Source of the DNA: an uncultured Verrucomicrobiae bacterium
GTDB taxonomy: Bacteria > Verrucomicrobiota > Verrucomicrobiia > Limisphaerales > Palsa-1400
Direction: 5' to 3'
Assembly (NCBI GenBank): GCA_963702845.1
Contig: OY969763.1
Location: 3,392,001-3,456,000 of the forward strand
DNA: 64,000 nt
The notes beneath the pieces were generated by a model. The model saw nothing but the letters and a program-made list of their open reading frames with translations, was not told where the DNA came from and searched no databases. Position numbers and translations under genes: made by a program. Shown one piece after another: positions 17,098 to 39,550 of the stretch (position 1 is its first letter; each line of letters begins with the position of its first letter).

Positions 17098-18843
17098 TTA
17101 CTTTGGCGGTTCGATGTTGTGTTTTACCGCCGATGAACTCTGGCCCGAAGGTTTCGCGGCCTCGTCAAGCGGATGCTCTTCTTCGTACAACTCCTGTGGC
17201 ACTTTTCCTGTCACAGCCGCACGACTATAGGGATAAATATCGGGATCGAAGATGACACTGTAGAGATGCCACACCAGAATCGCCAGACAGGCAAGGATCG
17301 CTTCGTAGAAGTGCACGGTGGTCGCCGCATCGACACACCACCGCTGCAGGAAGCGCGTCACATCCATTTTAAACCAAATCATAAAGCCGGTCGCGCCCAT
17401 GATGATCGTTCCCCAAACCACCGCCCAGTATTCCATCTTTTCGATGTAGGAGAACCGTCCGAACCGCGGTTTCAGCGGACTCATGCCGAGCAGGTACTGC
17501 GCTTGCTCTGAGATATCGCGGGCATCTTTCAGCGCCGGCAACATGTCTTTGACCAATCGGCGACCTTCCCTCGAACCCATGATGTAGCCCAGGTGGTAGA
17601 CACCACCAGCGAGCATAATGATTCCAGCAATGCGATGCGTCCAACTGCGCACTGCTTCGGTGCCGAGCGCATGCGCCCACCAGTTGTCCGGGAACTTGAG
17701 CGCGAAACCCGTCCAGGCCAGCACAATGAAACTGAGCGCGAGGATCGCGTGTTGAGTGCGTTGCGAAACGTACATGCGCACCACACTCGCGCCGTTCACA
17801 TGGCGACGCGCTGCAACTTTTCGTCCCATCAACAGACCGTTGTGAGCGATCATTGCGCCAATCACTCCGATGATCATCGCGAGATAAATTTTGCGTATCC
17901 ACCAATTCACTTTTTCGCCGAACCCTGCGCCGGCTTTGCTGCTGGCGACATCCACGTGGACTTTGCTCAACGCAAATCGTTCGTTCGCTCCCGGGTGACA
18001 TTTGCCGCAGGTCTGGACCAAATGGTCCTTGTTAATCGTCGAATGCGGATCAGATGACGGCAGAATTTTGTGAAACCCATGGCAACTGCTGCAATCAGCA
18101 GCGACCGCCGACCCGTAGGTCGCCGCAAGCCCATGATAACTTTCAAAAAACGTCTTCACACGATCGCTCGGCATTCGGAATTTGGTGTTAATCCGCTCCG
18201 ACGCGTGGCACTTGCTGCAAACCATTCTCGAAATATCCAAAGGCGAACGAGCTTTCAGCACCTCGATCTTATGTTCTGCATGGCAATCGGTGCAGGTGGC
18301 TGCTTCACGTTTGCCGTGCAATGATCCCTGGCCGTGCACACTCACGGCCACGTCTGCGGCTGGGTCCTTGTGACATTGTCCACAGGTTTGAGTGATGTGC
18401 TCAAAATTCAGAGGCGAATCGGGCAATGCCGCCGTGATTACGCTATGGTTTCCGTGGCAAGTGACACAACTGGGCGCGTTGGTTGCCCCTTTCTTCGCGG
18501 CCAAGCCATGAACGCTCGCTGCGTAATAGTCCGATTGCGTCTGGTGACAGCGCGCACAATCGACCGGCTTTGCTGCGAGATTGTCATCGGGATGCTTGTC
18601 GGTAAGATCGCTGTGACAACTCATACACGAGTTCGTTTTGTGCACCGACGCGTTCAGCTTGCTCACGTCACAGAAAACCGAACGAACGATGCCGGTTTTG
18701 TTAGTGGCGGTGAGAGTCTTGTCCTCGTGACATTGCAGGCAGTCTGCGTTGCTGATTTCGGCAGCGAGGATTTTCGCTCCGCACCAGAGCAGAAGCGTCA
18801 GCACGAACAACGCGGCACCGCGTGTCCGAAGTTTTATTTTCAT
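17098..18843 (-). CDS. CbcL-like inner-membrane protein: 9-heme cytochrome c domain fused to a b-type (FdnI-like) membrane domain
   Basis: 9 CxxCH; C-terminal TM region with QH..L...F..L..TG, HR.AG, RFSYIEKMEYWA..WG, HFYEA.LA...WH. Confidence 0.82.
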   Translation of the reverse strand: MKIKLRTRGAALFVLTLLLWCGAKILAAEISNADCLQCHEDKTLTATNKTGIVRSVFCDVSKLNASVHKTNSCMSCHSDLTDKHPDDNLAAKPVDCARCHQTQSDYYAASVHGLAAKKGATNAPSCVTCHGNHSVITAALPDSPLNFEHITQTCGQCHKDPAADVAVSVHGQGSLHGKREAATCTDCHAEHKIEVLKARSPLDISRMVCSKCHASERINTKFRMPSDRVKTFFESYHGLAATYGSAVAADCSSCHGFHKILPSSDPHSTINKDHLVQTCGKCHPGANERFALSKVHVDVASSKAGAGFGEKVNWWIRKIYLAMIIGVIGAMIAHNGLLMGRKVAARRHVNGASVVRMYVSQRTQHAILALSFIVLAWTGFALKFPDNWWAHALGTEAVRSWTHRIAGIIMLAGGVYHLGYIMGSREGRRLVKDMLPALKDARDISEQAQYLLGMSPLKPRFGRFSYIEKMEYWAVVWGTIIMGATGFMIWFKMDVTRFLQRWCVDAATTVHFYEAILACLAILVWHLYSVIFDPDIYPYSRAAVTGKVPQELYEEEHPLDEAAKPSGQSSSAVKHNIEPPK

Positions 18844-18851
18844 ACAACCTC

Positions 18852-21023
18852 TCAGTGGACCAGGCGGGTGACCATGGCGTAGATAATCAGCGCCAACAGC
18901 ACCAGTCCTAAACCGAAGAACAAATATCCAAAGCTGCGCGCGATGCCCTTCCAGCGCTCCCACTCGTCTTTGACGCGGTATTGGTCCAACTTGCCCGACG
19001 AGAGCAGCCGGTCATACCAGCGCTTGCGTTCGTGGAGCATTTCCGCTTTTGAAATGCGTCCTGAGAAAATCACTGTGTCCATGGGGAATTTTTCAATACG
19101 GAAGTGCGTATTGAAAAAGTGCACCGTGAAAATGAATCCAGCGGCAAGGAGCGCCTCGTCAGAGTGAACGATCAGCGCGATGTTAATGGCCCAGCTTGGC
19201 AGGAACTTCGAAAAGAATTGCGGGAACCACATGATCAAGCCCGACACGCCGATCGCGAACACGCCCCAAAACACCGCGAAGTAATCGAACTTTTCCCAGT
19301 AAGTCCAGCGATCGAACTCCGGTTTCGGTCCTTTGCCGAAGAACCATTTCTGATGTGCGATGAAATCCTTTACATCCTGCCACGTCGGAATCATGGAATC
19401 TGGACCAAACAAAACGTGTAGGAGCCGTGAAACCGACCACTTGCCGGTCGCCGGGTCACGCAATGCCTCCCGCTTGCTCCAACTGTTCACGAGCAAGCGA
19501 CCGACGTGCAGCCCAAAATACAGGAACGTGATGATTGCGCCGAAGTGATGCAATACGCGGGCGACTTGCGTTCCGCCGAGGATATAGAAAATCGATTTGG
19601 CCCAACTCGTGTAATAGAACTTCAGTGGCATTCCGGTCACAACGAGGAGCAGAAAACTTGTGACGACCAGGAAGTGCAGGAATCTCTCGTATGGCTGGAA
19701 TCGCGTGAACCATTCGCCGCCGCGTTGATGCGCATGAACCTTTGCTTCGCGGAACGTTTTCGAATCATTCACGTATAGATAACCAGATCGGAAAATCCAC
19801 AGCGCCGTGTGACCACCGAAAAATGCAAATACACCGATCAACAATCCCGTCATCCCGAAAAACACCGCGTTAAGTGCTGGATAGTTTTTGTGATCCAACG
19901 GATTCGCATGCGGCACGTATTGCGCAAAGCTCTCACTGGCATCGGCATGACATTTTTTGCAAGTGCCGACGATGTTCGCATTCGATAACCGCGAAGCCGG
20001 ATTGGATCGCGGCAAAACATCGTGTGCGCCGTGGCAGTCGTAACAAGCGGCCACTTCTGGCGCGGCGTTCGGTTTTCCTAGCGCCATCGCTTTGCCGTGA
20101 TACGTGTCGCGATAATGTTCGAGCCGGTCCTGGTGGCATTTTCCACAGCGCTCGTCACTAATTTCCTTGAAGCTACTTAATTCCGGTGACCCGATAGTGT
20201 GCGCCGTATGGCAGTCCGTACAAACCGGCCCGCGTTTGTCACCTTTGGCCAAAAGCTGTCCGTGCACACTAGCGTTGTATTGTTTTTCAATACCCAGATG
20301 ACACTTGCCGCATGTTGTCGCGACATTCGCGTGGTTTACCGTGGAACTGCGGTCAACACTGCGTTTTATATCATGCACCCCATGGCAGTCGTTGCACGAG
20401 GGCGCGACGATCAACCCCATCTTCAATAGCGCCTTGCCGTGCATACTGTCCGTGTATTGCGCCGCGACCTCCGGATATTTCATCCGATACTCCGTCGTGA
20501 TGCCCTCGTTGCTATGACACTTTGCACAGGTGCGCGGCAGGTTGAGTTTGTAAACAGGTGACTCGGGATCTTTCACCGCCATGATGTTGTGCGTGCCGTG
20601 ACAATCCGAGCAGCCGGCGGCCGCTGAAGCGCCCATTGATTTACTCACGCCATGAATACTTTCAGCGTAATTTTTTACGGCGTTGTCGTGGTCCGATTTC
20701 GCTTCATGACAATTATCGCAACGCGGTGCCGGCGGATGCGCTTCGTGAACCAGATCTTTGAAGCCGCGGTGGCAATCGACGCAGTTCAGTTTTCCGTGAA
20801 TAGATGCCTTAAATATATTGGTTGGAAAAACGGCCATCGGCACGGACTTGCCCTTCACCATGCGAGAAGTGGTTGGGTCGGTATGGCAATCGAGACAGTC
20901 CTGATTAGAAAATGTTTCGGTGACAGCAACAGATGTACCGTTGAATAAGAGCCAGATAACCGCAGCAAAGAGCAGAATAGTACATCGTCGAGAGGCCGCA
21001 ACAACACCACCACTTTTACTCAT
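18852..21023 (-). CDS. CbcL-like protein: 11-heme cytochrome c domain plus cytochrome b membrane domain
   Basis: 11 CxxCH; RFLH..VVTSF..L..TG, DRWTYWEKFDYFAVFWG, IVHSDEALLAAGFIFTVHFFN; start at MSKSGG uncertain. Confidence 0.82.
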   Translation of the reverse strand: MSKSGGVVAASRRCTILLFAAVIWLLFNGTSVAVTETFSNQDCLDCHTDPTTSRMVKGKSVPMAVFPTNIFKASIHGKLNCVDCHRGFKDLVHEAHPPAPRCDNCHEAKSDHDNAVKNYAESIHGVSKSMGASAAAGCSDCHGTHNIMAVKDPESPVYKLNLPRTCAKCHSNEGITTEYRMKYPEVAAQYTDSMHGKALLKMGLIVAPSCNDCHGVHDIKRSVDRSSTVNHANVATTCGKCHLGIEKQYNASVHGQLLAKGDKRGPVCTDCHTAHTIGSPELSSFKEISDERCGKCHQDRLEHYRDTYHGKAMALGKPNAAPEVAACYDCHGAHDVLPRSNPASRLSNANIVGTCKKCHADASESFAQYVPHANPLDHKNYPALNAVFFGMTGLLIGVFAFFGGHTALWIFRSGYLYVNDSKTFREAKVHAHQRGGEWFTRFQPYERFLHFLVVTSFLLLVVTGMPLKFYYTSWAKSIFYILGGTQVARVLHHFGAIITFLYFGLHVGRLLVNSWSKREALRDPATGKWSVSRLLHVLFGPDSMIPTWQDVKDFIAHQKWFFGKGPKPEFDRWTYWEKFDYFAVFWGVFAIGVSGLIMWFPQFFSKFLPSWAINIALIVHSDEALLAAGFIFTVHFFNTHFRIEKFPMDTVIFSGRISKAEMLHERKRWYDRLLSSGKLDQYRVKDEWERWKGIARSFGYLFFGLGLVLLALIIYAMVTRLVH

Positions 21024-21158: not shown

Positions 21159-21605
21159 CTATGCTGCAATTTCCTCAATCTGGTCCGCTATTTCACACAG
21201 CAGGTTGTAGTAATCCTCCTTGGACATCCCCAGCGCGTAGGCGCCAAACACTTCTGCGTCTTCCGCTGAAGCAAACTCGCCGTAGTTCACCAGCACGAGT
21301 TGATAAAGCACTACAGCCGGAACTTCTTTCAAACGGGTCATCAAAAGCGGATGAACGAAAATCTTGAAGCCATCTTCCGGATTTTCGCCCAGCGGTTCAG
21401 GATGTGCCATTTCGCCGAGGTGCAGACCGGCCGTATCGAACACAATTGTGCACGGATACCGCACGCACATCCGATCTTCCAACAGCAGTTGAAGTTCGTT
21501 CCAACCGATGTGCGGGCCATATTTTTCAAACACCTGCGCGCCTTTGTCACCGGCGTGTGCCGTAAGAGATTGGCGGGCATCTTCGACGGTTAATTTCTTT
21601 TCCAT
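21159..21605 (-). CDS. Hypothetical protein within the cytochrome cluster
   Basis: 148-aa ORF 4 nt downstream of the nrfD-like stop; normal composition. Confidence 0.7.
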   Translation of the reverse strand: MEKKLTVEDARQSLTAHAGDKGAQVFEKYGPHIGWNELQLLLEDRMCVRYPCTIVFDTAGLHLGEMAHPEPLGENPEDGFKIFVHPLLMTRLKEVPAVVLYQLVLVNYGEFASAEDAEVFGAYALGMSKEDYYNLLCEIADQIEEIAA

Positions 21606-21609: not shown

Positions 21610-23355
21610 TCACACTTTAGCTGTCGCGACTTCCCTGCTTAGGTCGGTCTCAGTGGGCATCACCAGTTCATGCAATGAAACGCTCTCATTTACTTGCAAG
21701 AGACGGCCCTGCAGGATCGGAACGGCCATTCGTAAGAACAGAGTATAGGCCATAATCCCAAACGCCCAGATGCCTACGCAGACTAATGTTTCGTTCATGC
21801 TCGGCGAATATTCGACGATTTCGCCCAAGGGGGTTGGGATGAATCCAGGCACCACCAGCCCCATGCCTTTTTCGATCCAGATGCCCACAATGGACAGGAC
21901 ACAAGCAACGTCGAGCCATTTCAAGCTCCGACTAATGGGTAGAATCAGCAGAACCATCGCGATCAGGTTAAAGGCAACCGCGGTCCAAATCCACGGCACC
22001 AATGCGTGGTGACCGTCCAGACCGAAGAACAGGTAAGTCGCCGATGAGACATTCTTGGACTTGCTGTAAAACTCCTTAAACACTTCGTTAAGCAACAGGA
22101 AAACGTTAATCAGCATCGCGACCTGGACAATGCTGCGCAAAGTCATCAATGACCGGTCAGTGATCATCAATCGTTCCGACATCCTCGCGTGGACAATCTG
22201 GTTCAGCCGTGGAGTTTTCATCAACTTCCTCAGGCCTTCCGCTGAGACGCACAAGATAGTTGAATGCTCTTCCGCGATGGCCGTGGCCGTCCGCACCGTT
22301 CCGGCAAGAGCAGAGACTTCTCCAAATTGATCTCCCGGACCGGCCGTGCGGATAATTCGATAGCGCCCATTCTCTTCGCGCTTGATGACGACGCGGCCAG
22401 TTAATACGAAGAACGCTTCCTTCTTCATTTGTCCCTGGGTGAGCAAAATATCTCCCACAGATGCTTCCAGGACCGTTGCATCCGCCGCTACTTCCTGCCT
22501 GATCGCCTGGCTGACGCCTTCCATTTCCAACAAATGTTTCGCCAGGTGTTTGAGGTCGTCCAATGTCGCTGGACGGCTGGGTAAAACTTCGTGCGGCGAC
22601 GGCCCATACCGCAACGCCGTTGAGGAGGTGACTCGCCGCACCACTTGTAGCGCCAAAATGATCAGCGCCGGGCCAGCCGTAAACGCCGACGCCAAAAAGC
22701 GTGGACCGACTATCGCCGAGTTCCAAAAATGTCTTCCACCCAACCCGACATACAGAAAGGCGGTTACGGTATGAATCGAAATCGCCCAAACAATTGCGAT
22801 AAATACGAATGGAATGTAAAACCACTTTGATGGCTTCCGATTGCGATACCGACAATAGAGCAGATACCCGCAGATATAGACGTTAAGAAACAAGTAGCCG
22901 TTGAGAACGACGACGTCCCAGCTCAACATCGAGTGAGGGAAATTGAATTGTCCAATGCCAGGGATGAGGTGCCAGAAGCGGTCGGGTCGGCCAAGGTCAA
23001 CCGTCACAAACGCCAGGCACATCAGAATCGCAGCCACCGCCAACAACTCGCCGAAAATGACAAGATCATGCAGGTCCTCATTGCTGTATATATAGACAGG
23101 GATGACCAACATGGCAGCCGCAGCCGCAACGCCAACGATAAATGTGAAGTTGGAGATATAGACGCCCCAGGACACCTGGTCGCTCATGTTCGTTGTAATC
23201 AATCCATGCACGAACTGTTTGCAGTAGGCATTTAACCCCACCATGCAGAGGATAAATAAAACGCCCAGCCAAAGGTAGTAACGCCAGTCACCGACAAATG
23301 CCACCCTCGCACAGCGGTACAAAAACCGCAGATAATTTTTTGCAGCAGTAATCAT
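21610..23355 (-). CDS. nrfD: NrfD/PsrC-family quinol-binding membrane subunit (CbcU-like) with inserted cNMP-binding domain
   Basis: VSWGVYISNF, VDLGRPDRFWH, SMLSWDV, WIEKGMG..PGFIP; internal GDQFGEVSALAGTVRTATA. Confidence 0.88.
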   Translation of the reverse strand: MITAAKNYLRFLYRCARVAFVGDWRYYLWLGVLFILCMVGLNAYCKQFVHGLITTNMSDQVSWGVYISNFTFIVGVAAAAAMLVIPVYIYSNEDLHDLVIFGELLAVAAILMCLAFVTVDLGRPDRFWHLIPGIGQFNFPHSMLSWDVVVLNGYLFLNVYICGYLLYCRYRNRKPSKWFYIPFVFIAIVWAISIHTVTAFLYVGLGGRHFWNSAIVGPRFLASAFTAGPALIILALQVVRRVTSSTALRYGPSPHEVLPSRPATLDDLKHLAKHLLEMEGVSQAIRQEVAADATVLEASVGDILLTQGQMKKEAFFVLTGRVVIKREENGRYRIIRTAGPGDQFGEVSALAGTVRTATAIAEEHSTILCVSAEGLRKLMKTPRLNQIVHARMSERLMITDRSLMTLRSIVQVAMLINVFLLLNEVFKEFYSKSKNVSSATYLFFGLDGHHALVPWIWTAVAFNLIAMVLLILPISRSLKWLDVACVLSIVGIWIEKGMGLVVPGFIPTPLGEIVEYSPSMNETLVCVGIWAFGIMAYTLFLRMAVPILQGRLLQVNESVSLHELVMPTETDLSREVATAKV

Positions 23356-24314
23356 ACGTCAAAGTAGTAATAAAATCGTGGGTTGTTCCCGACTTCCTCT
23401 TTCAATTGAATAAACACGCGCTTCTCCCGAAGGATGTGATAAACCTCGCTATTCGGATCGAGCACGTTGCCAAATTTTCGAGCGCCCGCCGGGCAGACGT
23501 CGTGGCACGCGGGCATCTTTCCGGCGCGCGTCCGTTGAATGCACCAGTGGCACTTTTCCATCACGCCTTGTCGGCGCGGACGATTACCAAGATAGGACAT
23601 GTTCGGGTTAAGCCGCTCTTTCGGCACTTCCGGTTTCGTCCAATTGAAGCGACGCGCAAAGTAGGGGCACGCGGCTTCGCAGTAGCGGCAGCCAATGCAC
23701 CAATCGTAATCGATTACAGTAATTCCATCCGATTCCGTCCACGTCGCTTTGACAGGACAAACCTGGCTGCAAGCAGAGTTGCGGCATTGCTGGCATGCCA
23801 CGGGCATGTAGAAGAAGCCTTTTTCCGGCACTTGCGCCGTATCATAATTGTGTTGGCCCTCTTCCGGATTGAGCGAGCCATGCGGCATCTTCAACACGCG
23901 GATGTATTGCATCTCGGGATTGCGTGACAAATTATTTTCCTGGGCGCAGGCGTGAACGCATTTACGACAACCGATGCAACGCGTCAGGTTCAGGCAATAG
24001 ACAAACTCCACCCCGTCCATCGGCTTGTAATCCTTCACATGGGGACGGATGCCGTATTGTTTCTCGACTTCTTTCTCGATGCGCTTTAGCACCAGGCCCA
24101 TTTCGTCCGGCGTCATCTCGCGATAATGCTTTTGGAAAAACTTTTCCATGGACGTGTAATCCGTCAGGTCACGCAACGGCTCTAGCGCGGCCGCCATTGC
24201 CGCCACGCCGGCAATTGCCACGGCTGACGTGCGCAGGAAACTGCGACGATCAACCCGTTGTCCGCCTGAAGAACATCCACCCGAACTCGAATCGGTTTTG
24301 CAATTGCAGCTCAT
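23352..24314 (-). CDS. Tat-exported 4Fe-4S dicluster protein (NrfC/CbcT-like)
   Basis: DRRSFLR twin-arginine motif; CIGCRKCVHAC, CQQC..SACSQVCP, CIGCRYCEAACP, KCHWC..ACHDVCP; ATG overlaps the upstream TGA. Confidence 0.9.
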   Translation of the reverse strand: MSCNCKTDSSSGGCSSGGQRVDRRSFLRTSAVAIAGVAAMAAALEPLRDLTDYTSMEKFFQKHYREMTPDEMGLVLKRIEKEVEKQYGIRPHVKDYKPMDGVEFVYCLNLTRCIGCRKCVHACAQENNLSRNPEMQYIRVLKMPHGSLNPEEGQHNYDTAQVPEKGFFYMPVACQQCRNSACSQVCPVKATWTESDGITVIDYDWCIGCRYCEAACPYFARRFNWTKPEVPKERLNPNMSYLGNRPRRQGVMEKCHWCIQRTRAGKMPACHDVCPAGARKFGNVLDPNSEVYHILREKRVFIQLKEEVGNNPRFYYYFDV

Positions 24315-26673: not shown

Positions 26674-27006
26674 TTACTTCTTGAAACTGCGCATTTTGGC
26701 CACGAGCGCTTTGATTTGATCGTCGCTCAGACCGTCAGCCGGTTTCATCAGCGTCTTGCCGTCCTTGTCTTTCAATCCTTCCTTCACGGCTTTGACCGCT
26801 TCATCGTCCTTCACTTCTCCTTGAACCTTGGCGTCGGTGTAATCCTTCGCGCCAAGTTTCTTGCCCATCTTTGTGTCGCCTTTGCCATCGGGTCCATGGC
26901 ACTTGGCGCATTGTTTGTCATAGTTGGCCTGGGTATCGTCGGCACGCACGCTGATCAGGCCGAGTGCCGAGAGTGCAATTCCCAGTATCAACAGGTTCTT
27001 TTTCAT
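26674..27006 (-). CDS. Periplasmic monoheme class I cytochrome c
   Basis: Signal peptide; CAKCHGPDGKG; distal Met (LMKP). Confidence 0.92.
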   Translation of the reverse strand: MKKNLLILGIALSALGLISVRADDTQANYDKQCAKCHGPDGKGDTKMGKKLGAKDYTDAKVQGEVKDDEAVKAVKEGLKDKDGKTLMKPADGLSDDQIKALVAKMRSFKK

Positions 27007-31776: not shown

Positions 31777-32805
31777 CTATGGCGCTCCGATGTATTTGAA
31801 AACTTGAACGCAATGGTTGTAACCGTCGGCTACATAAATTTCGTTCTTGCGCGATATGGCAATCCCACCCGGCATACTGAACTCACCCGGCCCATCGCCA
31901 CGCTCACCGAGGCTCAATAACAACCGCCCTCCCGAATCAAACACCTGGAAATTCGCAAACACCGCGTCGGCCACGTAAATATGACCGAATGAATCCGACG
32001 CAATTCCTTTTGGCCGGCTGAAGTGCCCTGACGTGTCGCCATTGCTCCCGAACATCGAAACAAAATTCCCGCTCAGTTCAAAAACCTGCACCCGGCAATT
32101 TAGAGAATCAGTCACCAGCCAATGCCCCCGCCCGTCATTGGCAATGTGTGTGGGAAAGTTAAACTCGCCCTGCCCTGTGCCCCGCTTGCCGAACTGAAAC
32201 TGCAGCTTGCCTTTCAGATCAAAAACAAAAACCGCATGCGCCTGGGAATCGGCCACTGCAAGCGTGTCACCTGCAACTGCAACACCGGACGGCCGCAACA
32301 ACGGTTCGGAAATGGTCCAGATCGATTTGCCGTTTTCCTTAAACGCGATCACTCGCGCCAACTCAGAATCCGCTACATAAAAAATCCCCTTCTCACGCGC
32401 GACGGCGACGGGCGACGCAAAACGAACCTTGTCCACCGCCTCATAATTGCGCCACTGCTTCTTGTTCAGATCCACATACGAAATCCGCTTCGCGCCCGTA
32501 TCGGTAATGCACAAATTGCCAACGTCATCGATGCAAACGCCAAACGGCTTCTGCAACGCCATTTCCTCATTTTCGTCGCCGGTGATCCAACGTCCAAACC
32601 TGGCGAAAGCCGACACCCGCTGACCGATATCGCGTGGATGATTCAAGTTCCGCACGTATTCAATTCGCGCATCGTCCGGTGGGGACGGCCACACGCGCCG
32701 TTTCACCACCACCGCAGGTTTCTCCCGCGCACTGGAAAAACTGCATATTCCCAGTACGACCAAAACGACAATAGCAAGCAGGCTGTAATGAACTCTTTTC
32801 AACAT
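31777..32805 (-). CDS. NHL-repeat six-bladed beta-propeller
   Basis: WPSPPDDARIEY start; P.GVAV...IYVAD repeats; GEFNFPTHI, GHFSRPKGIA. Confidence 0.9.
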   Translation of the reverse strand: MLKRVHYSLLAIVVLVVLGICSFSSAREKPAVVVKRRVWPSPPDDARIEYVRNLNHPRDIGQRVSAFARFGRWITGDENEEMALQKPFGVCIDDVGNLCITDTGAKRISYVDLNKKQWRNYEAVDKVRFASPVAVAREKGIFYVADSELARVIAFKENGKSIWTISEPLLRPSGVAVAGDTLAVADSQAHAVFVFDLKGKLQFQFGKRGTGQGEFNFPTHIANDGRGHWLVTDSLNCRVQVFELSGNFVSMFGSNGDTSGHFSRPKGIASDSFGHIYVADAVFANFQVFDSGGRLLLSLGERGDGPGEFSMPGGIAISRKNEIYVADGYNHCVQVFKYIGAP

Positions 32806-34839
32806 TTAGAAAGTCCTCCTCAGTTTGAAGAACACGTAATCGCGCACCTTCGTCTCGCGCAGGTAATCGACATTATCGTGCTCGTAACCCATGTTCATTT
32901 GGATCCTGCCCACCATCCAATTCAGATACGAGCGCGCGGCGAACAAGTTCTCGTTGATATTCAAACCGGTTTGATATTGGTAACCAATTTCATTTTTCCA
33001 ACTCAACCTCGGCAGCGGCCGCCAGTCATGACTGAGCATGAAATTGTAAAACGTGGAATGTTGCTTCAATTGCGTCTGAGCCGGCCCGCTCGCGCTGATA
33101 TCATCCGACCATTGTTGGTTGAAATTAATTTCGAGTGTCGAGTTGTCCGTCATATCCATCGAATAGCTCTCCGACAAATTGAAGCTCTTCAGGGTGAAAA
33201 ACGTCGAGTGCTGATCGGTGTAATCCGCAGTCAACACCAGCCTTTTCCACGTGAAATTAGCGCCCGCCTCAAACACATCTTCGTTATCGACAATGACGTC
33301 AGGCGACGACGCGTGATTATCCGTGAAACTGTATCGCGCATAGATCGACGCCATCTCGTTCCAAAAACTCAATCGTAATTGCACCGCATCACTGAAACTC
33401 GTCGAACTCGCCGTCGGATTGATTTGCACCGTGTAAGTCACCTGGATCACCGCGCCGGGTTGAATGTGGCTCGGACCAAACGGATTGATCTGAATCTGCC
33501 ACGGCTCGGAATGAATGACCGTGTAATCCGTCGTGTCAAGCGGCACAGTATTCGAGTCAACGATACTCACGAGCGTCAGCGCGCGCACATGACTCAAACG
33601 CACGATGGTGTTTGCCGGCACAACGTGCGATTCATTCGCAATTAGCAGAATCCCTCCGCTGGTGCTTTGATGATTCAAATTAAAACTCGCGCTATCACTC
33701 AAGGACAGCCGCCCCCAAGAGCCAAGCCGCTTGCTGTAGTCTTCAGTGATGGTGGTGCCTGCTGAAGTGGACTCCGTTGAGTCTGTGCTCGACCCGTTGT
33801 TCGCCCAACTCCCATGCACATCGATCGAGGAGGCAAGGCTTTCGTAGAGTTGATGCCTCAAACCAGCGCTCGCATATCCATACGTCGAATCAAATCCGTC
33901 GCCCGCGTATTGCGAATACGACCCCTGGTAATAGTTGTGCAATCGCTCAGTTAGATCCAAATCATAGTTCACCGCGCCGGTAAAATCATTCACCGACGAC
34001 AGATCGGACTCACGATTCGCTAACCGCAGCGTCGATTTCAAAATGCTTCGCTCAAAATGTTCTGTGTCCTGCACATCCACACGATTGATCGAGCTATCAT
34101 TCGAAATAGTCCTTCCCGTTCCGGTTGCATTCCCGGTCTGAACCGTGCGGTCAAACTCCGTATACTGGTAAGTGAAAAAAGTTGTGTTGTGATTCTGACG
34201 CTCGTTTTGCGCGGAAAGGTCCAGGTCTCGTTGCGTGGTAAGTGCCCTTTGAAACAACTCATCAGCATCCTCATGTGACTCGTTAAACGACAACTGCACT
34301 GGAATTCCTCCTTGCCGATATCCTGTGACAATCCCCCACGTCTCCGAATCAACCGAGGCCATGTTGAAGAACCCATACTGCACCTCATCATGGCCGCGAT
34401 CGAACGTAAACGTCGTTGCATACGGCTTGGCCGAAAGAAACTGGGCGTTAACTTTGCCGTTCACCGTGAACTCGTTGTTATCATTCGGCGCTCCATTCAC
34501 GGACGTGCGCCGCCAGGTGTAGCCGGGCTCAAACAGCGCCGAGTAGGTCAACAAATACGGGTGGTAGATGTAATTGTCCCAACCCACGGCAACTCTTGGC
34601 GAAATGTAATACCGCGTGACCTCCTGGTGGCCGCCGAACTGCGAGTCAAATGTGTCCCGCTGCGCATCCGTGTCCACGAGCATGTATTTGAATTTCGGAA
34701 TCCACCGTGAGTTCGCCTGTTCTTCTTCCCCGATCCAATCGCGATACTCCGCGCGCGCGCCAATCACAGTCACGAACATCCACAACACCATCACAACCTG
34801 TGCGATGGTCGCTGTTATTTTGGATGGTCTTAGGTTCAT
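32806..34839 (-). CDS. Outer-membrane beta-barrel protein (putative porin of a porin-cytochrome conduit)
   Basis: Signal peptide; alternating amphipathic strands rich in Y/F/S/T/N; C-terminal VFFKLRRTF ending in Phe; lies between multiheme cytochrome genes. Confidence 0.75.
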   Translation of the reverse strand: MNLRPSKITATIAQVVMVLWMFVTVIGARAEYRDWIGEEEQANSRWIPKFKYMLVDTDAQRDTFDSQFGGHQEVTRYYISPRVAVGWDNYIYHPYLLTYSALFEPGYTWRRTSVNGAPNDNNEFTVNGKVNAQFLSAKPYATTFTFDRGHDEVQYGFFNMASVDSETWGIVTGYRQGGIPVQLSFNESHEDADELFQRALTTQRDLDLSAQNERQNHNTTFFTYQYTEFDRTVQTGNATGTGRTISNDSSINRVDVQDTEHFERSILKSTLRLANRESDLSSVNDFTGAVNYDLDLTERLHNYYQGSYSQYAGDGFDSTYGYASAGLRHQLYESLASSIDVHGSWANNGSSTDSTESTSAGTTITEDYSKRLGSWGRLSLSDSASFNLNHQSTSGGILLIANESHVVPANTIVRLSHVRALTLVSIVDSNTVPLDTTDYTVIHSEPWQIQINPFGPSHIQPGAVIQVTYTVQINPTASSTSFSDAVQLRLSFWNEMASIYARYSFTDNHASSPDVIVDNEDVFEAGANFTWKRLVLTADYTDQHSTFFTLKSFNLSESYSMDMTDNSTLEINFNQQWSDDISASGPAQTQLKQHSTFYNFMLSHDWRPLPRLSWKNEIGYQYQTGLNINENLFAARSYLNWMVGRIQMNMGYEHDNVDYLRETKVRDYVFFKLRRTF

Positions 34840-36029
34840 TGTGATTTAGGCAATGCCGTCAGAGCCTTCGACACGGGTTTGAGCAAATGCTTTTGCTCGC
34901 TGAAATGTGGGTTGTGACATTCGACGCACGATTTGCCTTCCGACCCTGCGTGCCCGGCCAACGCCGCCATGTCCTTCTGCTCGTGGCAATCCATACAAAT
35001 CGTCGACCCGGGCTTCGCGAGCATGAACCGCTCATTCGAAGCGTGCGGCGTATGGCACATCATGCATTCGCCGTTTTGAATCGGCGCGTGGACCGACTTG
35101 GCGACCTGAAGCTGACTCTGAAAATCATCGTGACATTGGTAACAGGTGTCGCCCCCTTTGTGCTTGAGAAGTTTTTCATTTTGCGTGGAGTGCGGATTGT
35201 GGCACACGGTGCAGTCGCCCGATTCGACCGGCGCGTGCACAAACTTGGCCGTCTTCGCGAAATCATCGTGACATTTGTAACAGAGTTCTTTGCCGGCGAA
35301 CTTCGTCAGGAACTTGTTCGGCCCGCCGTGCGGCAGATGACATTCCAGGCAACCGTTCATCTCCAGCGCGGCGTGCTTCACCGGCTCTTGCCCGATCTGC
35401 TCATGACATTTCAAACAAAGGGCGTTGCCCGTCCTCAGCAACAACTTCTTATTCGGAGATCTATGTGGATCGTGACACTTCGTGCACTGCCCCATTTCCA
35501 CTGGCTTATGCTTCACCGCAACCGGCATTGCGAAATTCTTCTTGTGACACTGCATGCAAAGCTCCAGTTGCGGCATTTTCAGAACCGGATTCAGGGCCGA
35601 CCCGCCATGGCATTGCCCACACTCCTGTTTTTCGAAGGGCGGATGGAAAACAAAGTTCGATGTCGTGTTCTGAGAAAAACGAAATGCCGAAAGCACCGAA
35701 GGCCTCTTTCTCGTTGAATCTCTCCTGGGACCAGTTTTGGTTACCTTGTTTGTGACACCCTCATCAGGAACTCCATCGAACAGAAACTTCAGGATTTTGT
35801 GCTTTTTCGATTCAGCCTTGGTCGGCGTTGCATTCGTGGATTGAACTGCCGCGGGCACGGCGTTTGTGGATTGAGCCTTGGACACGTCTGGTTTCGCCGT
35901 TTCAACCGCCTTGCTCGCGATCACACCACCGCAAAGAACGGCCGCCACAGCCACGACAACCAACAGGCTTCTACTGAGGGGATTCACTCTCTCACTCACT
36001 GGCGGATGTTCTTTGGGAGCGACGTTCAC
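34836..36029 (-). CDS. 11-heme cytochrome c (paired-CxxCH repeats), putative periplasmic/porin-threading conduit
   Basis: 11 CxxCH in regular H.PV..G.C..CH.PH.....LL......C..CH repeats; overlaps the porin start. Confidence 0.9.
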   Translation of the reverse strand: MNVAPKEHPPVSERVNPLSRSLLVVVAVAAVLCGGVIASKAVETAKPDVSKAQSTNAVPAAVQSTNATPTKAESKKHKILKFLFDGVPDEGVTNKVTKTGPRRDSTRKRPSVLSAFRFSQNTTSNFVFHPPFEKQECGQCHGGSALNPVLKMPQLELCMQCHKKNFAMPVAVKHKPVEMGQCTKCHDPHRSPNKKLLLRTGNALCLKCHEQIGQEPVKHAALEMNGCLECHLPHGGPNKFLTKFAGKELCYKCHDDFAKTAKFVHAPVESGDCTVCHNPHSTQNEKLLKHKGGDTCYQCHDDFQSQLQVAKSVHAPIQNGECMMCHTPHASNERFMLAKPGSTICMDCHEQKDMAALAGHAGSEGKSCVECHNPHFSEQKHLLKPVSKALTALPKSQ

Positions 36030-37163
36030 TTCTTGTGACCGAAGCCGTACACGGCAACCTTGTGCGGTCCCAGTTGGTTGATGACGATCACCAGGTGCTC
36101 AACAACGAAATTTGGCGAAGTGTACTTTTTGAAATACTCAACGTCCTCGTAATCGACGGCGACTTTCGTCGGCAGGATTTGGATGCGCGGTCCTTCACCT
36201 GGATCACCAAAGAACGTCAGCAGCTTTCCTTCATCGTTAAAAATCTGGATGACCTGTGACATCGCGTCCGCCGCATAAATCTGGTGCGCGCGATCGACCG
36301 CGATTCCTTTCAGGCGAGCGAACATGCCGAGCCCATCACCCATTTCGCCAACCGTCCGAATATGCTTCCCGTCCGGCTGATAAATTTGAACGTGTCCAGC
36401 GCCCGTATCGCTGACATACAGTCGGCCCTGATCGTCTATCGCGAGATTGCCAGGTGTAAACAAGCCCGTGATCTCGTTCGTTGCAGCCGCTCCGTTAACG
36501 AGGTTCGTCACGTAATTGCGCGACGCCTTCTCATAAATACGAACGTTGTGCGATTGCACGTCCGCCACATAAATCCGATCAGCGCCAATCGCGACATCGC
36601 GCGGTTTCATCTCACCCGTCTTGCCGATGGTGCCGGCGTAAGCGCCCTGTTTATCAAAAACAACAACCTGCTCGCGCGTGCTGTCAGCGACGTAAGCCGT
36701 GCCATCGGTTTTATCGATTGCGATGTTCAACGGCGTTCGCAACGCACCTTCGCCTGTCGCCTCAAGCATCCCGATCTTCTGCTCCTTCAGGTCCACCACC
36801 AACACCGTGCCCAGCGCCGTGTCGCAAACGAAAATCTTATGGTCGTACGTCAGTCACTCCATAGGGCTTGCTTATTTCCTTCGTGGCCTCCTGCTGGCCA
36901 GTAATGAACGATTTGAAACTGTGGCTCTTTTTTTGGCGAAATGATTTCTCCGAAGCAAACCCTGTCAGATACTGCAAACGCGGCGCATCCGGCGGCGCCG
37001 GATAGAAAATATCTGTGCGCTGGTTCGCCGGGGGTTTTTCAGCTCCCTTCTTCTCGCTCTTGCCGAGCGCTGAAGCAGCACCACTGGTCAAAAAGCCAGT
37101 GATCATCGTTGCGAACACGACTCCCAGAACTGTTTGTTGAAACGTGTGTTGGAGGTTCTTCAT
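36026..37163 (-). CDS. NHL-repeat beta-propeller, one frameshift near 36852
   Basis: ORF 36837..37298 (FYPAPPDAPRLQYL..KPYGV) joins ORF 36026..36805 after removing one base (VTTYDHKIFVCDT). Confidence 0.85.
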
Positions 37164-37425
37164 ATGTGCAATTTTCCTATGCCTCCAAGTGTAGAAACCG
37201 GTGAAAAACTGCACTAACCGTATCTTGCTATTGTCCCCGCCTAAATTGGTTAGCCCTCTCGATAAGAAGGCCAGAATGGATATGTGATAGATTGACATCG
37301 TTGCAACTAAATATGTTCAGTCTTTTCGGAGCCTGCCTTTTATGCGGCTCAACATTTACGCCGCCCCGAACTTCTGGACCCAATTAACACCGTTAGGCTC
37401 GTCATGACCGCCGCCTCCCAAGTAC

Positions 37426-37459
37426 AAAAAACAGGGCCACATGTTTCCATGTGACCCTG
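37426..37459 (-). terminator. Rho-independent terminator after the OmcE-like gene
   Basis: Minus strand CAGGGTCACATG-GAAA-CATGTGGCCCTG-TTTTTT. Confidence 0.85.
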
Positions 37460-37491
37460 ATGAAACGCAGCGTTAAGCTGCATGCAGTTGA

Positions 37492-38283
37492 TTACTTATC
37501 GTGGCACGTCAAACACAGCTGGCCACCTTGAAGGGGAACCATCAGCGCATGGTCGTATTGAATTGTGCCGGAAGAACCGATCGTTTCATGAATGTCATGG
37601 CACGAGGCGCATTCCATCGTACGGGTACCAGCGGGTCCCTTAATCATGTGCGAGATCATCGTTCCATTAACGACAGGTTTCAGCTGAGGATCCGCTGCCA
37701 CTGCCTGGTCGTAATTGACGCCGAGCGGGTGCATGTGGGTCAGGTCTGTGCTGCCACCAACCGTCTCAACAGCAAAACTTGGAGCAAAGACGTTCGTCGT
37801 CACTGTTCCGTCACCGTTGAATGTGGTTTTGCCATAAGCCTGGTTGATACCGATTGAGCCGTCATGGCAGCTCAAGCAGGCAGCCGACGATCCCAACGAA
37901 GTGATCGCACCGAGACCAAGCGCGTTAAACGTGGCCGATCCGCCTTGATCATACGTCATATAACGGGTGGTCGCGTTGCTCGCCGCATTGTGGTTCCACA
38001 ACGGCGCATTCACAGCGCTGTAAGACGGGGCTTTGTGCGGAATGTGGCATACCTGGCAGGGATTTTCATAATACGCGGCTGCATTGACGCTGCCGTTTGC
38101 ATTGGTCTTAACTCCACCACCCCATGCAAACTTGGCGGCTTGTACCTGGCTGAGCGCACCAGCTCCTCCTGTGGAACTGAAGTCGTGCACGCTACCTATG
38201 ATAGTCGCACTTACAGTCGTCGCCGATAAGGCAACTACTGCTCCCAGGGCTAAGCCTGCGAGGATTGTTTTTGGTGTTGTCAT
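37492..38283 (-). CDS. Secreted OmcE-like tetraheme cytochrome c (candidate nanowire subunit)
   Basis: Signal peptide; IIGSVHDFS, CQVCHIPH, PLWNH, CLSCHDG, TDLTHMHP, MECASCHDIH, QLCLTCHDK at the extreme C-terminus. Confidence 0.8.
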   Translation of the reverse strand: MTTPKTILAGLALGAVVALSATTVSATIIGSVHDFSSTGGAGALSQVQAAKFAWGGGVKTNANGSVNAAAYYENPCQVCHIPHKAPSYSAVNAPLWNHNAASNATTRYMTYDQGGSATFNALGLGAITSLGSSAACLSCHDGSIGINQAYGKTTFNGDGTVTTNVFAPSFAVETVGGSTDLTHMHPLGVNYDQAVAADPQLKPVVNGTMISHMIKGPAGTRTMECASCHDIHETIGSSGTIQYDHALMVPLQGGQLCLTCHDK

Positions 38284-38428
38284 ACTTAGGTTCGCTTTCT
38301 ACTAGCTAGTTGTTCGATTTCGATGTCGTTTTGGAGATGCATCGTGTGATGCACCCACTTCTGGACTCGATTCGTCGTTCTAGCGCTAGACCGCGGATCG
38401 TTTCCAAAATTGTTTTGTTGTTTGTTTT

Positions 38429-39550
38429 TCATGCTGCGCATGGAACTGCTCCGTACACCGGAACAGCCCGTTCTGATTGCCTGGGCGCTTTCACTGGCTT
38501 GCCCACCGGTCCAGTCAATTTCTCCATCAATTCAATCGTGTGCTGCTCGACGATCGCACGGCACGTCTCGATCTCCTGCTGGCGCAGACGAACGTTCTCC
38601 TTCACGATTTGTTCCAGATCATCGATGTCGTAGAGGAACACGTTCTCGAGTTCCTGCACGTTGGGATCGATGTCGCGCGGCACGGCGATGTCGATTAAAA
38701 CCAGAGGACGATTGCGTCGCGTTTGCATGACTGCGGCGACATCATCGCGGTCGAGCACCGTCTCAGGGCACCCGGTCGAACTGACGACAATGTCGGCATT
38801 GCGCATCTCAGCGATGCCATCGTCCATGAAATTCACTGCGCGCGCGCCGAACTCGTCGGCCAACTTTTGTGCGCGTTCCATCGAGCGGTTTGCCACGATG
38901 ACCGATTTGATGCCCTTCTTGGCCAGATGCCGCACACACGCTTCTCCCATTTTACCTGCGCCAACGATCATCACCGTTTTATCGGCCAGCGCGGTTCCGA
39001 AAATCTTTTCAGCAAGTTGAAGCGCGACACTACCGACTGACGTAGCGCCGCGCTGAATTTGGGTTTTGCTCCGGATCGCTTTGGCGGTCTGCAGGGCCTT
39101 TTGAAACATCCGGTTGGTAACAGAGCCCGTCAGTTTAACTTGATACGCTTTTTCGTAAGCACCTTTGACCTGACCGGCGATTTCCGTTTCGCCAAGAACC
39201 ATCGAGTCGAGTCCGCTCACCACAGAAAATAAATGCCGCGCCGCGCCGTCGTTCTCGTGCGCATATATATAGGGCGTCACATCAAAGCCGCCGCGCGCCA
39301 CCGAATTCAGAACGGTTTCAGCCGTGCCACGATCCGGCGCAACGCCATAAATTTCCACGCGATTGCAAGTGGACAAAACGACCACTTCGCTGAGACCCTT
39401 TTTCACCTTCAGTTGGCACCCTGTGCAGGCGAGGGCATGTTGCGAAATCGCCATCTTTTCGCGCACTTCAACTGGTGCCGTTTTGAAGCTGATACCGGCG
39501 ACAAAGGGAACGCTGGTCTGATTTGTTGTTCTAATGAAATTCATATTCAT
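38429..39550 (-). CDS. hemA: Glutamyl-tRNA reductase
   Basis: KTAPVEVRE, LSTCNRVEIY, SGLDSMVLGETEI.GQVK, GAGKMG, IDIAVPRDI. Confidence 0.95.
   Translation of the reverse strand: MNMNFIRTTNQTSVPFVAGISFKTAPVEVREKMAISQHALACTGCQLKVKKGLSEVVVLSTCNRVEIYGVAPDRGTAETVLNSVARGGFDVTPYIYAHENDGAARHLFSVVSGLDSMVLGETEIAGQVKGAYEKAYQVKLTGSVTNRMFQKALQTAKAIRSKTQIQRGATSVGSVALQLAEKIFGTALADKTVMIVGAGKMGEACVRHLAKKGIKSVIVANRSMERAQKLADEFGARAVNFMDDGIAEMRNADIVVSSTGCPETVLDRDDVAAVMQTRRNRPLVLIDIAVPRDIDPNVQELENVFLYDIDDLEQIVKENVRLRQQEIETCRAIVEQHTIELMEKLTGPVGKPVKAPRQSERAVPVYGAVPCAA

Follow-up and report, generated by a model that had tools for sequence, protein, structure and literature searches.

Does a dense run of multiheme cytochrome genes in a verrucomicrobial genome encode a route by which respiratory electrons leave the cell, and does that route end in a cytochrome wire? 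The run lies in the window, the whole 64,000-nucleotide stretch analysed here, whose source organism likely belongs to the order Limisphaerales. A check of open reading frames (ORFs) and motifs on the minus strand, from 17098 to 39550, returned the 18 co-oriented genes of the first-pass annotation, all in the order given there, and its count of 70 heme motifs was confirmed as 67 CxxCH plus 3 CxxxCH, one of the latter being included in the counts of each of the '12-heme', '10-heme' and '7-heme' genes. The genome-wide six-frame density predicts ~2.4 CxxCH motifs per 22.45 kb, the three plus-strand frames of the cluster region contain 1, and 65 of the 155 CxxCH motifs in the genome's ORFs with at least two motifs lie in the cluster. 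A glycoside hydrolase gene adjoins the cluster. The outer and inner halves are split by a 568-bp gap (27553-28119), for which the ORF listing holds no minus-strand ORF of at least 90 amino acids, thus the cluster probably forms more than one transcript. Sigma-70-like sites in the cluster were fewer than in shuffled sequences (5 versus 9.6), and we claim no promoter.

The cluster is the union of two cassettes, each of which also occurs separately. The inner-membrane cassette encodes ImcH, two CbcL/MtrH-family proteins and a tetraheme/Fe-S/DsrP-like complex, and the outer cassette consists of six genes for a tetraheme cytochrome, two NHL propellers, a variable wire protein, a barrel and a 12-heme cytochrome. 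Of 76 GTDB loci chosen solely by the 12-heme protein, 47 contain the barrel, the tetraheme and both propellers. The novelty first seen in the completeness of the system within one cluster stands only in part: the cluster is complete, but it recurs shuffled in relatives and its halves occur apart. The idea that the gene order runs meaningfully from outermost to innermost component was abandoned, since the inner-membrane genes lie upstream of hemA in genomes G237, G317 and G012. The cluster hemA itself (38429..39550, minus strand, as are all features below) encodes a glutamyl-tRNA reductase (TIGR01035, 365 bits, cut-off 210) and adjoins the module in 11 of the 22 order-level genomes examined. 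A second hemA, 46% identical, is present elsewhere in the source genome (G000), and the cluster copy likely boosts heme supply.

As judged from its hallmarks, three N-terminal transmembrane helices and one CX3CH followed by six CX2CH motifs, the gene at 25105..26577 encodes an ImcH-family menaquinol oxidase. Its product measures 490 residues from the first ATG and 495 from an upstream TTG (published lengths are ~495-519), and E135, K181, Q187 and Y196 correspond to E127, K173, Q179 and Y188 of G. sulfurreducens, at the same offset from the heme 1 histidine. It is 43% identical to the single match in the Geobacter-type genome G356; among the four genomes behind the deltaproteobacterial loci, ImcH was present in one. 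The 11-heme (18852..21023; PF01292, partial TIGR01583, histidines in the transmembrane part) and 9-heme (17098..18843; PF01292 at 2e-16) proteins show the CbcL/MtrH/MtoC hallmark of an N-terminal multiheme domain (9 hemes in CbcL) fused to cytochrome b, and the latter is 33% identical to its single match in G356. A crude hydropathy scan beyond the leader found 3 segments in the 9-heme and 5 in the 11-heme protein, versus the six transmembrane helices expected for the CbcL type, and PDB matches of ImcH and the 11-heme protein were weak only. With the pocket residues and the G356 matches, the ImcH and CbcL-family assignments hold. Two monoheme class I cytochromes c (27118..27447 and 26674..27006; PF00034/PF13442) are encoded upstream of ImcH. 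So far, ImcH has been tied only to quinol oxidation and electron exporters, CbcL/MtrH homologs are also found in Fe(II) oxidisers, and a 2018 survey includes homologs of ImcH and CbcL from Verrucomicrobia (Zhong and Shi 2018, PMC6295460). Because of this exclusive tie of ImcH to quinol oxidation, outward flow is favoured, so the earlier view that direction cannot be read from the sequence is weakened, though not wholly overturned.

The third quinone-linked component comprises a membrane-anchored tetraheme (24311..25012; heme motifs and Pfam), a DsrO/QrcC-like 4Fe-4S subunit with a twin-arginine-like RRSFL motif (23352..24314; NF045797 DsrO at 158 bits, below the cut-off of 200) and a DsrP-like quinone-site subunit of the NrfD family with 10 hydrophobic segments (21610..23355; NF045798 DsrP at 409 bits, cut-off 350). 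In 20/20 loci examined, the Fe-S and NrfD genes are preceded by the tetraheme gene, and a conserved hypothetical protein (21159..21605; Verrucomicrobiota clusters at 0.98, no Pfam match) comes after the NrfD gene in 19/20. The membrane-anchored multiheme, Fe-S subunit and 10-TM NrfD protein are shared with DsrJOP-, QrcACD- and CbcSTU-type complexes, and the DsrP model is passed. Geobacter CbcSTU has this NrfD-type layout. The proposal of a 'Cbc complex' holds for the architecture only: the NrfD module is DsrP-like, and its DsrP-like subunit has no homolog at E<=1e-20 in 3/3 Desulfuromonadia-class genomes (G356, G326 and G340). Compared to DsrJOP, the cytochrome is a tetraheme instead of a triheme, and DsrMK and dsrA are missing from the finds: neither PF02665 (NarI/DsrM) nor TIGR02064 (dsrA) was found in the 89.8% complete source genome, and the same holds for RuBisCO and a convincing NrfA. 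A further difference is a cyclic-nucleotide-binding (cNMP) domain of 152 residues (245-396; 22168..22623; PF00027 at 1.9e-17), inserted between TM6 and TM7 and predicted to be cytoplasmic; close homologs without it join residue 244 to 397. Its phosphate-binding cassette, G-E ... R, is present (FGEVSALAGTVRTA), with G345, E346, S348 and R355 invariant (121/121) and flanks 26-77% conserved, and the solved structures closest to it are PKG/PKA and CRP domains. We infer that the complex may be regulated by cAMP or cGMP through this insert. The available part of the NrfD review does not mention such an insert and literature searches did not find one; a quinone-site respiratory subunit that cyclic nucleotides control directly would, if demonstrated, be a novelty.

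The predicted surface chain subunit is a tetraheme of the OmcE family (37492..38283; phmmer 9YUQ at 6.7e-19 and 7TFS at 9.5e-9). Its four CxxCH motifs have counterparts in alignments with 7TFS and 9YUQ, as do the four other OmcE histidines, and these four others are kept in 73-75 of 75 homologs. H33, H83, H185, H232 and H98 are conserved in 71-75 of 75; H98 is a ninth histidine, found in 71/75 tetrahemes and replaced by Arg in both solved OmcE sequences. In a tree whose deep branches have moderate support, the protein groups apart from omcE-locus proteins (split support 69%, omcE clade 88%), and by BLAST it is closer to L176:3120 (2e-22) than to the 7TFS-identical L175:9546 (6e-14), both from G356. 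The first-pass annotation had spoken of a nanowire module and named OmcE for comparison; given its clade and its grouping with L176:3120, the tetraheme is by sequence an OmcE paralog and not an ortholog. No solved filament from its own clade was among the PDB matches. In OmcE, the interfacial heme takes a histidine from the next subunit (Petersen et al. 2026, PMC13712944). The motif pattern AbAb, with a histidine three residues past hemes 1 and 3, is present in 73/75 tetrahemes, and the neighbouring wire protein lacks that first histidine in 72/74 cases. Like OmcE, the tetraheme has a spare histidine following heme 1 and one heme that lacks a partner inside the subunit, and on this ground it might polymerise into a surface chain, for which, as part of the filament reading, we see an even chance. 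H98 could ligate the open heme internally and block polymerisation. For these His-to-heme assignments we assume the paired-CXXCH/NrfB logic, rather than deriving them from coordinates. Directly after the gene lies an intrinsic-terminator-like hairpin (37432..37459; 12-bp stem and T run). Such elements follow 28/72 tetraheme genes versus 5-14 of 71-107 for other module genes (8/84 for the 12-heme gene), a comparison that the greater intergenic distance following the tetraheme gene confounds; the excess would be as expected for an abundant structural subunit.

What could end or anchor such a chain is suggested by the 12-heme cytochrome (30049..31773), in which an N-terminal OmcE domain (residues 24-212, window 31138-31704) is followed by an 8-heme extension; residues 12-212 match 7TFS at 5e-29. 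The AbAb pattern opens 89 of 90 homologs, and H56 and H263 occur in all 90. Since the protein keeps the spare His56 and gains His263, which could ligate heme 4 within the same OmcE domain, it is predicted to be the cap, anchor or tip, of an OmcE-family wire. The 16 conserved non-motif histidines for 12 hemes exceed what this cap model explains. H263 is missing in 8/8 stand-alone 8-heme homologs, and the possibility that these cap a separate tetraheme via this position was rejected, as they have Met, Phe or Ile there. In its available text, the OmcE paper raises the need for such an anchor or tip, names no candidate in omcE operons, and imagines a non-extending anchor with 'nine histidines and four hemes' (Petersen et al. 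2026, PMC13712944). Fusions of an OmcE domain to an 8-heme part were found in operons of an OmcE-family subunit in at least 12 named phyla.

The first-pass annotation had made its reading depend on a barrel at 32806..34839, and an outer-membrane beta-barrel of large size, with ~28 long strands and a small beta domain inserted around residues 397-475, was confidently predicted there by AlphaFold2, using a 77-row alignment (mean pLDDT 85.6); a single-sequence fold (pLDDT 35) was discarded. The best structural match was MtrB (6R2Q_B, Z 21.1, rmsd 7.8, 471 aligned, 9% identity), with other large barrels at Z 16-19. The sequence matched no Pfam or NCBIfam family, nor the MtrB family, and a profile of it found no barrel in 20-kb stretches at canonical omcE loci. 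Across loci, the gene upstream of the barrel encodes 3-23 hemes, with an odd-numbered closed pattern in 62/74, and its 11-heme paired-CXXCH (DmsE/MtrA-like) representative here (34836..36029) is predicted to be a closed periplasmic wire whose length varies between loci. This protein and the 10-heme paired-CXXCH cytochrome (28120..29286; heme motif count) scored 128 and 94 bits with the DmsE/MtrA model TIGR03508, both below the cut-off of 192, and the latter is 33% identical to an 11-motif cytochrome of the G356 omcE locus. Next to it is a secreted, NrfJ-like OB-fold protein (29287..29994), so assigned from ESM Atlas clusters at 0.96 named OB-fold / NrfJ family, with no Pfam match. NHL propeller 2 (31777..32805; PF01436 at 7e-32) is 39% identical to its counterpart in locus L176 of G356. 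Propeller 1 (36026..37163; NHL Pfam) is frameshifted into 36837-37163 and 36026-36842, is in one frame in family member G003, and has one base fewer at 36851 in a relative's contigs from runs X2 and X4 of one sample. In this assembly glnA and the sole WWD-type ccsA that was found carry frameshifts too, which points to long-read indels, and the break in propeller 1 is probably an assembly error. No lipobox was found on either propeller when the first 45 residues were scanned with a simple pattern, and the leader of propeller 1 has no Cys.

Our model is that ImcH, the two CbcL-family proteins and the DsrP-like complex would oxidise menaquinol, possibly at several different potentials, in analogy to G. 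sulfurreducens, in which ImcH serves at high and CbcL at low potential, with the DsrP-like complex regulated by cAMP or cGMP. Periplasmic cytochromes would pass the electrons to the MtrB-like barrel, the OmcE-family tetraheme would polymerise into a surface wire capped by the 12-heme protein, the two propellers and the barrel may serve secretion or anchoring, and the respiratory electrons would end on minerals or humic matter. We put the probability of outward electron transfer in any form at roughly 0.8, and the version with a long surface filament could go either way. With a predicted barrel, a non-chimeric contig and sound ImcH and CbcL assignments, the original proposal of an extracellular electron transfer system native to Verrucomicrobiota (Limisphaerales-like) is upheld. 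Cultured Limisphaera are described as reducing ferrihydrite, i.e. Fe(III). More speculatively, the nine-histidine tetraheme might represent a second, much wider-spread type of OmcE-family nanowire with its own operon-encoded cap, used by polysaccharide-degrading Limisphaerales on minerals or humics, with quinol entry switched by cAMP or cGMP through the DsrP-like insert.

Electrons might also leave through a finite porin-cytochrome conduit, with the 11- or 12-heme protein running through the barrel in the manner of MtrA in MtrB, and a surface terminal reductase made of one or a few nine-histidine tetrahemes, without a long filament. The fold match to MtrB, the fit of the ninth histidine to the anchor imagined by Petersen et al. 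(PMC13712944), and the modelling of peat clusters as Mtr-like conduits by Fiorito et al., whose main text does not use the word nanowire (10.64898/2026.05.27.727921), make this conceivable. We nevertheless consider it rather doubtful, as the spare histidine after heme 1 is kept in 73/75 tetrahemes and lost in closed wires, the terminator after the tetraheme gene suggests an excess subunit, and 13/89 barrels have no multiheme gene directly upstream. Electron uptake, for which Fe(II), reduced humics, sulfide minerals or a syntrophic partner could be the donor, is improbable, as is bidirectional flow, because ImcH is reported only from exporters (PMC6295460), RuBisCO and dsrA were not found in the source genome, a glycoside hydrolase gene adjoins the cluster and the order is saccharolytic. 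In favour of uptake, propeller/cytochrome clusters that may be related are described as taking up electrons both in Desulfovibrio ferrophilus IS5 and in partners of methane-oxidising archaea, and CbcL/MtrH (PMC6295460) and, according to the NrfD review, NrfD-type complexes are capable of quinone reduction.

A periplasmic terminal reductase or heme 'capacitor' without outside contact seems very unlikely. It would agree with weak NapC/NrfH and DsrO/DsrP matches and with an inner cassette that occurs without the OmcE-family barrel, that barrel being present in just 9 of the 38 genomes whose NrfD subunit is of the cNMP type. However, this cluster has a barrel and an OmcE-family subunit, no CxxCK and no catalytic molybdopterin subunit, and inner cassettes without the OmcE module are often flanked by another set, of a 9-heme protein, a 7-heme protein and a putative porin of 700-800 residues (porin matches weak, 2/8). 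Equally remote is the view of the locus as an assembly artefact, a recent Desulfobacterota transfer or a decaying inactive remnant, to which the frameshifted propeller and the patchy distribution of the outer module (33/301 order genomes, about one in nine) could be ascribed. Against it, gene order is near-identical in G003, protein identity with genus member G002 is 73-89%, and the frameshifts in glnA and ccsA suggest long-read indels. A chimeric contig with a cluster from Desulfobacterota, named at the outset as a possible refutation, was likewise rejected: in GC3 and tetranucleotide use the locus does not stand out from the genome (19% of 268 windows differ to the same degree), and the 12-heme protein falls inside a 36-row Verrucomicrobiota/Kiritimatiellota/Lentisphaerota clade with 99% support, away from Desulfobacterota. 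On these sequence grounds, we regard the locus as native to a Limisphaerales genome.

Outward electron transfer by Limisphaerales, abundant polysaccharide degraders in peat, soil and lakes, would matter for carbon flow to CO2 instead of methane, with the outer module in about one in nine sampled genomes. The novelty at first claimed was too high in view of the ImcH and CbcL homologs listed in 2018, Fe(III) reduction in Limisphaera, and Limisphaerales porin-cytochrome clusters with OmcE-like models. The latter are part of the EET3 and EET4 clusters of peat Verrucomicrobiota, and anoxic peat holds transcripts of those in Limisphaerales (Fiorito et al. 2026, bioRxiv 10.64898/2026.05.27.727921). 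EET4, likened to our locus by its main-text description, combines a porin with multihemes and has OmcE-like models among its representative cytochromes; that main text does not mention nanowire, ImcH, CbcL or NHL. He et al. (2017, PMC5615132) described a verrucomicrobial porin next to multihemes, proposed to transfer electrons to humics. Identity with our outer module was rejected on heme number and OmcE homology, as their complex has an 8-heme periplasmic partner and is, in the available text, described without OmcE/OmcS homologs; it may correspond to the other porin set beside the inner cassette. Compared to G. sulfurreducens ImcH and CbcL (PMC6295460; bioRxiv 10.1101/2023.05.03.539133), the ImcH architecture, the four pocket residues and the fusion of 9 hemes to cytochrome b are the same, at 43% and 33% identity as measured to G356, but there is an extra 11-heme CbcL paralog, and the ImcH and CbcL genes are clustered here and far apart in G356.

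The minimal omcE cluster contains two multiheme cytochromes, two propellers, a tetraheme and a large barrel, and the five phyla listed for it do not include Verrucomicrobiota (Petersen et al. 2026, PMC13712944). These components are shared between our locus and the omcE clusters of G. sulfurreducens (7TFS) and D. soudanensis (9YUQ), but here the tetraheme belongs to a paralogous clade with a ninth histidine, a 12-heme OmcE-fusion is encoded in the same operon, the propellers lack a lipobox whereas Desulfuromonadia propellers are described as lipoproteins, and inner-membrane quinol genes are co-located. By sequence, the true counterpart of the outer cassette in a Geobacter-type genome is L176 of G356, which is separate from the omcE locus encoding the protein identical to 7TFS. 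L176 has the same six genes in the same order (tetraheme with LWSH, NHL, 5-heme, barrel, NHL, 12-heme) and is the best BLAST partner for 5/6 of the outer-cassette genes (27-45% identity), but it has a 5-heme instead of an 11-heme wire and no adjacent hemA, ImcH or CbcL. Judged from gene spacing and position, L176 is probably GSU3221-GSU3226. The GSU3218-3233 cytochrome genes are reported as 2- to 8-fold up with hematite or magnetite (PMC4070692), and our literature search found no functional study of a second OmcE-like locus of the GSU3221-GSU3226 type. With regard to the way in which cytochrome nanowires begin, end and are fixed to the cell, the histidine pattern of the 12-heme OmcE-fusion fits a cap, and because a Geobacter-type genome holds the corresponding locus, this cap hypothesis is directly testable, including in a genetic model.

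The cluster of 18 minus-strand genes at 17098..39550 is real and native, and is most likely an outward electron-transfer system. ORF inspection of the window found the genes arranged as the first-pass annotation had claimed, and its count of 70 heme motifs was borne out as 67 CxxCH and three CxxxCH, against about 2.4 CxxCH expected in a stretch of equal length. The source genome (G000), one 6.03 Mb contig (completeness 89.8%, contamination 1.5%), carries resB and ccsA for System II cytochrome maturation away from the cluster. The frame of the first propeller gene, NHL1, is broken in the window's assembly, likely through an assembly error, since its counterpart in G003, a genome of the same family, is a single reading frame, a relative's contigs (two runs, one sample) have one base fewer at 36851, and glnA and ccsA are also split. 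The break in glnA (9622-11062), which yields two ORFs (Gln-synt_N and Gln-synt_C), is probably another assembly indel, and the several frame switches in ccsA (System II heme synthase, WWD-type), adjoining resB at L137:3900-6200 (G000:C1 about 5.016-5.018 Mb), are unlikely to be real because the genome has more than 150 heme motifs. Divergent to hemA lies a FeoA-domain (feoA-like) gene (39901-40233), a possible link to iron uptake, and at 42416-45855 an AAA ATPase and S8 peptidase pair resembles the IteAS anti-phage system, both below model cut-offs. Elsewhere, the genome encodes a 1,318-residue protein with 10 hemes, LVIVD repeats and a stretch weakly resembling ExtM (L139:4034-7987; G000:C1 1131030-1134986), possibly a second surface cytochrome.

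A chimeric contig, or a cluster derived from Desulfobacterota, would have undermined this reading, yet the 12-heme tree, the composition and the loci of relatives all place the cluster as native to its genome. In the tree of 90 12-heme proteins (FastTree only, sampling biased to best matches), the window falls inside a single clade of 36 rows with 99% local support, distant from Desulfobacterota and consisting of Verrucomicrobiota plus one Kiritimatiellota, one Lentisphaerota and one unnamed row. Tetranucleotide use and codon position 3 GC of the locus are ordinary for the genome. The hemA-to-ImcH gene set recurs in G003 at 39-86% identity, and a genome of the same genus (G002) holds pieces of the locus at 73-89%. 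The barrel's closest named relative, 90% identical, carries a Limisphaerales label, and for the 12-heme and NrfD proteins the named top matches come almost entirely from Verrucomicrobiae; these labels are the basis for placing the genome in its order. Within the order, searches detected the barrel family in 33 of 301 genomes (26 of 144 genera); in a sample of the whole phylum, 3 of 401 genomes had a match to the 12-heme protein, and the tetraheme was found in 5 of 41 close relatives. GTDB loci chosen by the 12-heme protein alone (76 loci, from the 80 top-ranking of 621 or more matches) contained the barrel in 68 cases, barrel and tetraheme in 52, and these plus two propellers in 47, many loci without the full set ending at contig edges. 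In this top-ranked sample, the 52 loci with barrel and tetraheme come from 12 named phyla, most often Planctomycetota (14), Verrucomicrobiota (10) and Bacteroidota (7).

The 263-residue tetraheme matches OmcE of D. soudanensis (9YUQ, 6.7e-19) and of G. sulfurreducens (7TFS, 9.5e-9), with eight of eight OmcE heme histidines aligned. The predicted outer-membrane barrel also held up: the model of the 677-residue protein is a barrel with some 28 long strands (pLDDT 85.6), the top Foldseek matches were all large outer-membrane barrels, and realignment placed MtrB first (Z 21.1, rmsd 7.8). According to the available text of Petersen et al. (2026, PMC13712944), the smallest omcE cluster comprises OmcE, a large barrel, two propeller lipoproteins and two multiheme cytochromes, and is reported in five phyla, Verrucomicrobiota not being named there among them. 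Judged by sequence, the outer cassette is a paralog of this omcE locus. Of 121 Desulfuromonadia-class genomes, 76 had a match, and 20 stretches were cut out for comparison. A Geobacter-type genome (G356) contains three related loci. One is an omcE locus with a tetraheme identical to 7TFS, another combines a propeller with a tetraheme and an 8-heme protein encoded by separate genes, and the third, L176, has the window's six outer genes in the window's order. L176 holds the best match in this genome for five of these six, the 11-heme wire having its better match at the omcE locus. For a tree of OmcE-type domains, 37 of 75 tetrahemes and 30 of 90 fusion domains were drawn at random and combined with 24 Desulfuromonadia rows, 91 in all. 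The tree separated the tetrahemes of the barrel module from omcE-locus proteins (support 88), fusion domains (88) and split forms (99), with weak support at the deepest split. The barrel-module tetrahemes have His for OmcE's Arg (LWNH versus LWNR) in 71 of 75. L176 is probably GSU3221-3226. In the available table of PMC4070692, GSU3218, 3221, 3223, 3226, 3228, 3232 and 3233 are listed with increased expression on hematite and magnetite, and the spacing of these tags is compatible with the L176 gene order, where we infer the tag-to-locus mapping. Eight Desulfuromonadia loci (L168, L170, L173, L177, L179, L182, L184 and L185) carry a split 12-heme form, in which the 8-heme part has its own gene beside a propeller and an OmcE-like tetraheme; no barrel was detected near these genes. 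In two Desulfuromonadia-class genomes, an OmcE-like tetraheme adjoins a cytochrome roughly 2,700 residues long with 62 or 63 hemes (L172:9130-18175 and L181:1641-10449).

In paired-CXXCH chains, as in NrfB-type structures, a His three residues past one heme motif ligates the preceding heme. By this logic OmcE would have a spare His past heme 1, and its heme 4 would be left open, in keeping with the interfacial heme reported for this protein. The counts agree with the rule: the first spare His is retained in 73 of 75 tetrahemes; in the wire gene beside the barrel, whose product would require no partner, it is absent in 72 of 74, and 62 of 74 show a closed odd-numbered pattern. Residues 12-212 of the 12-heme protein match 7TFS at 5e-29, more strongly than the window tetraheme does, and all 90 12-heme proteins carry the spare His plus His263, after heme 5, which is absent from eight stand-alone 8-heme homologs. 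Because the 12-heme proteins keep the spare His and add His263, the fusion could be a chain cap: it would supply a ligand to a tetraheme's open heme, its own heme 4 being ligated internally, and so form the chain end. Such an anchor or tip has been called for, and apparently none is encoded within omcE operons, as far as the available text of Petersen et al. (2026, PMC13712944) goes. Against a cap, three conserved histidines of the 12-heme protein remain unaccounted for, and the ninth conserved His of the tetraheme (H98) might close the chain by itself. A terminator-like hairpin lies 3' of the window tetraheme gene and follows 28 of 72 tetraheme homologs, versus 8 of 84 12-heme genes and 5-14 of 71-107 for other module genes; this excess fits an abundant subunit, although gap length confounds the comparison.

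For the inner cassette, the ImcH call for the 7-heme protein agreed with the definition in the available text of Zhong and Shi (2018, PMC6295460), and four pocket residues named in the accessible part of the ImcH preprint (bioRxiv 10.1101/2023.05.03.539133) occur at identical offsets. This protein shows 39-43% identity, and the 9-heme cytochrome b protein 33-34%, to single matches in three Geobacter-class genomes, the latter being the level reported for CbcL versus MtrH/MtoC. The tetraheme/Fe-S/NrfD trio passed the DsrP model and failed the DsrO model, and no close match was found in the Geobacter-class genomes searched. The NrfD subunit contains a 152-residue cyclic-nucleotide-binding (cNMP) insert between TM6 and TM7, which the positive-inside rule would place on the cytoplasmic side. 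Both domains occur in all 120 top homologs, and the predicted cNMP-site residues G345, E346, S348 and R355 are invariant (121/121). A close NrfD homolog is present in 109 of 301 genomes of the order, and among the matches listed 38 genomes carry the insert; forms 82-86% identical cleanly lack it. Two class III nucleotide cyclases are encoded in the window's genome. The fusion was not found in the literature searched or in the available text of a NrfD review. At L152 (G053:C22), in one genome, a 9-heme gene lies between two divergent long-form copies of the NrfD module. In 19 of 20 loci, whether or not the insert is present, the DsrP-like gene is followed by a gene for a soluble 148-residue protein of no known family (21159-21605 in the window), and the Atlas clusters found for this protein were only Verrucomicrobiota-dominated. 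In the window's genome, at 89.8% completeness, no dsrA, DsrM/NarI, RuBisCO or convincing NrfA was found; it encodes alternative complex III and heme-copper oxidase, and the organism is therefore probably also capable of oxygen respiration.

The inner (quinol) cassette is apparently combined with one or the other of two conduits. Of 22 genomes from the order that carry the outer module, several on short contigs, 11 have hemA adjacent to it and 6 ImcH, on either side. None of the 20 NrfD-centred loci examined, nine of which contained ImcH, showed the OmcE-family barrel, and of the 38 genomes with the insert among the matches listed only nine have this barrel. Many NrfD-centred loci are flanked by a different set with a large ORF that gave weak porin matches in two of eight tested. 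This set, a 9-heme protein, a 7-heme protein and a 700-800-residue putative porin, was seen in other Limisphaerales (L152-L154, L157-L161, L164, L165, L188 and L193). In a Myxococcota locus (L071:11732-14700), an insert-free tetraheme/Fe-S/NrfD trio lies directly 3' of a 12-heme gene; linkage of the two cassettes is therefore not confined to the window's order. The proposed completeness in one cluster thus stands as the fullest single arrangement observed, but as one among several shuffles and not a unique design.

From the available texts, a different porin-cytochrome cluster is known in Verrucomicrobia (He et al. 2017, PMC5615132), Palsa-1439 and Limisphaerales have conserved, transcribed clusters with OmcE-like models (Fiorito et al. 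2026, bioRxiv 10.64898/2026.05.27.727921), two Limisphaera isolates reduce ferrihydrite, and propeller/cytochrome clusters are also used for electron uptake by D. ferrophilus and by syntrophic sulfate reducers. Worth following are the cyclic-nucleotide domain within a quinone-site subunit and the nine-His paralog together with the 12-heme protein predicted to cap it, for which an orthologous locus exists in Geobacter.
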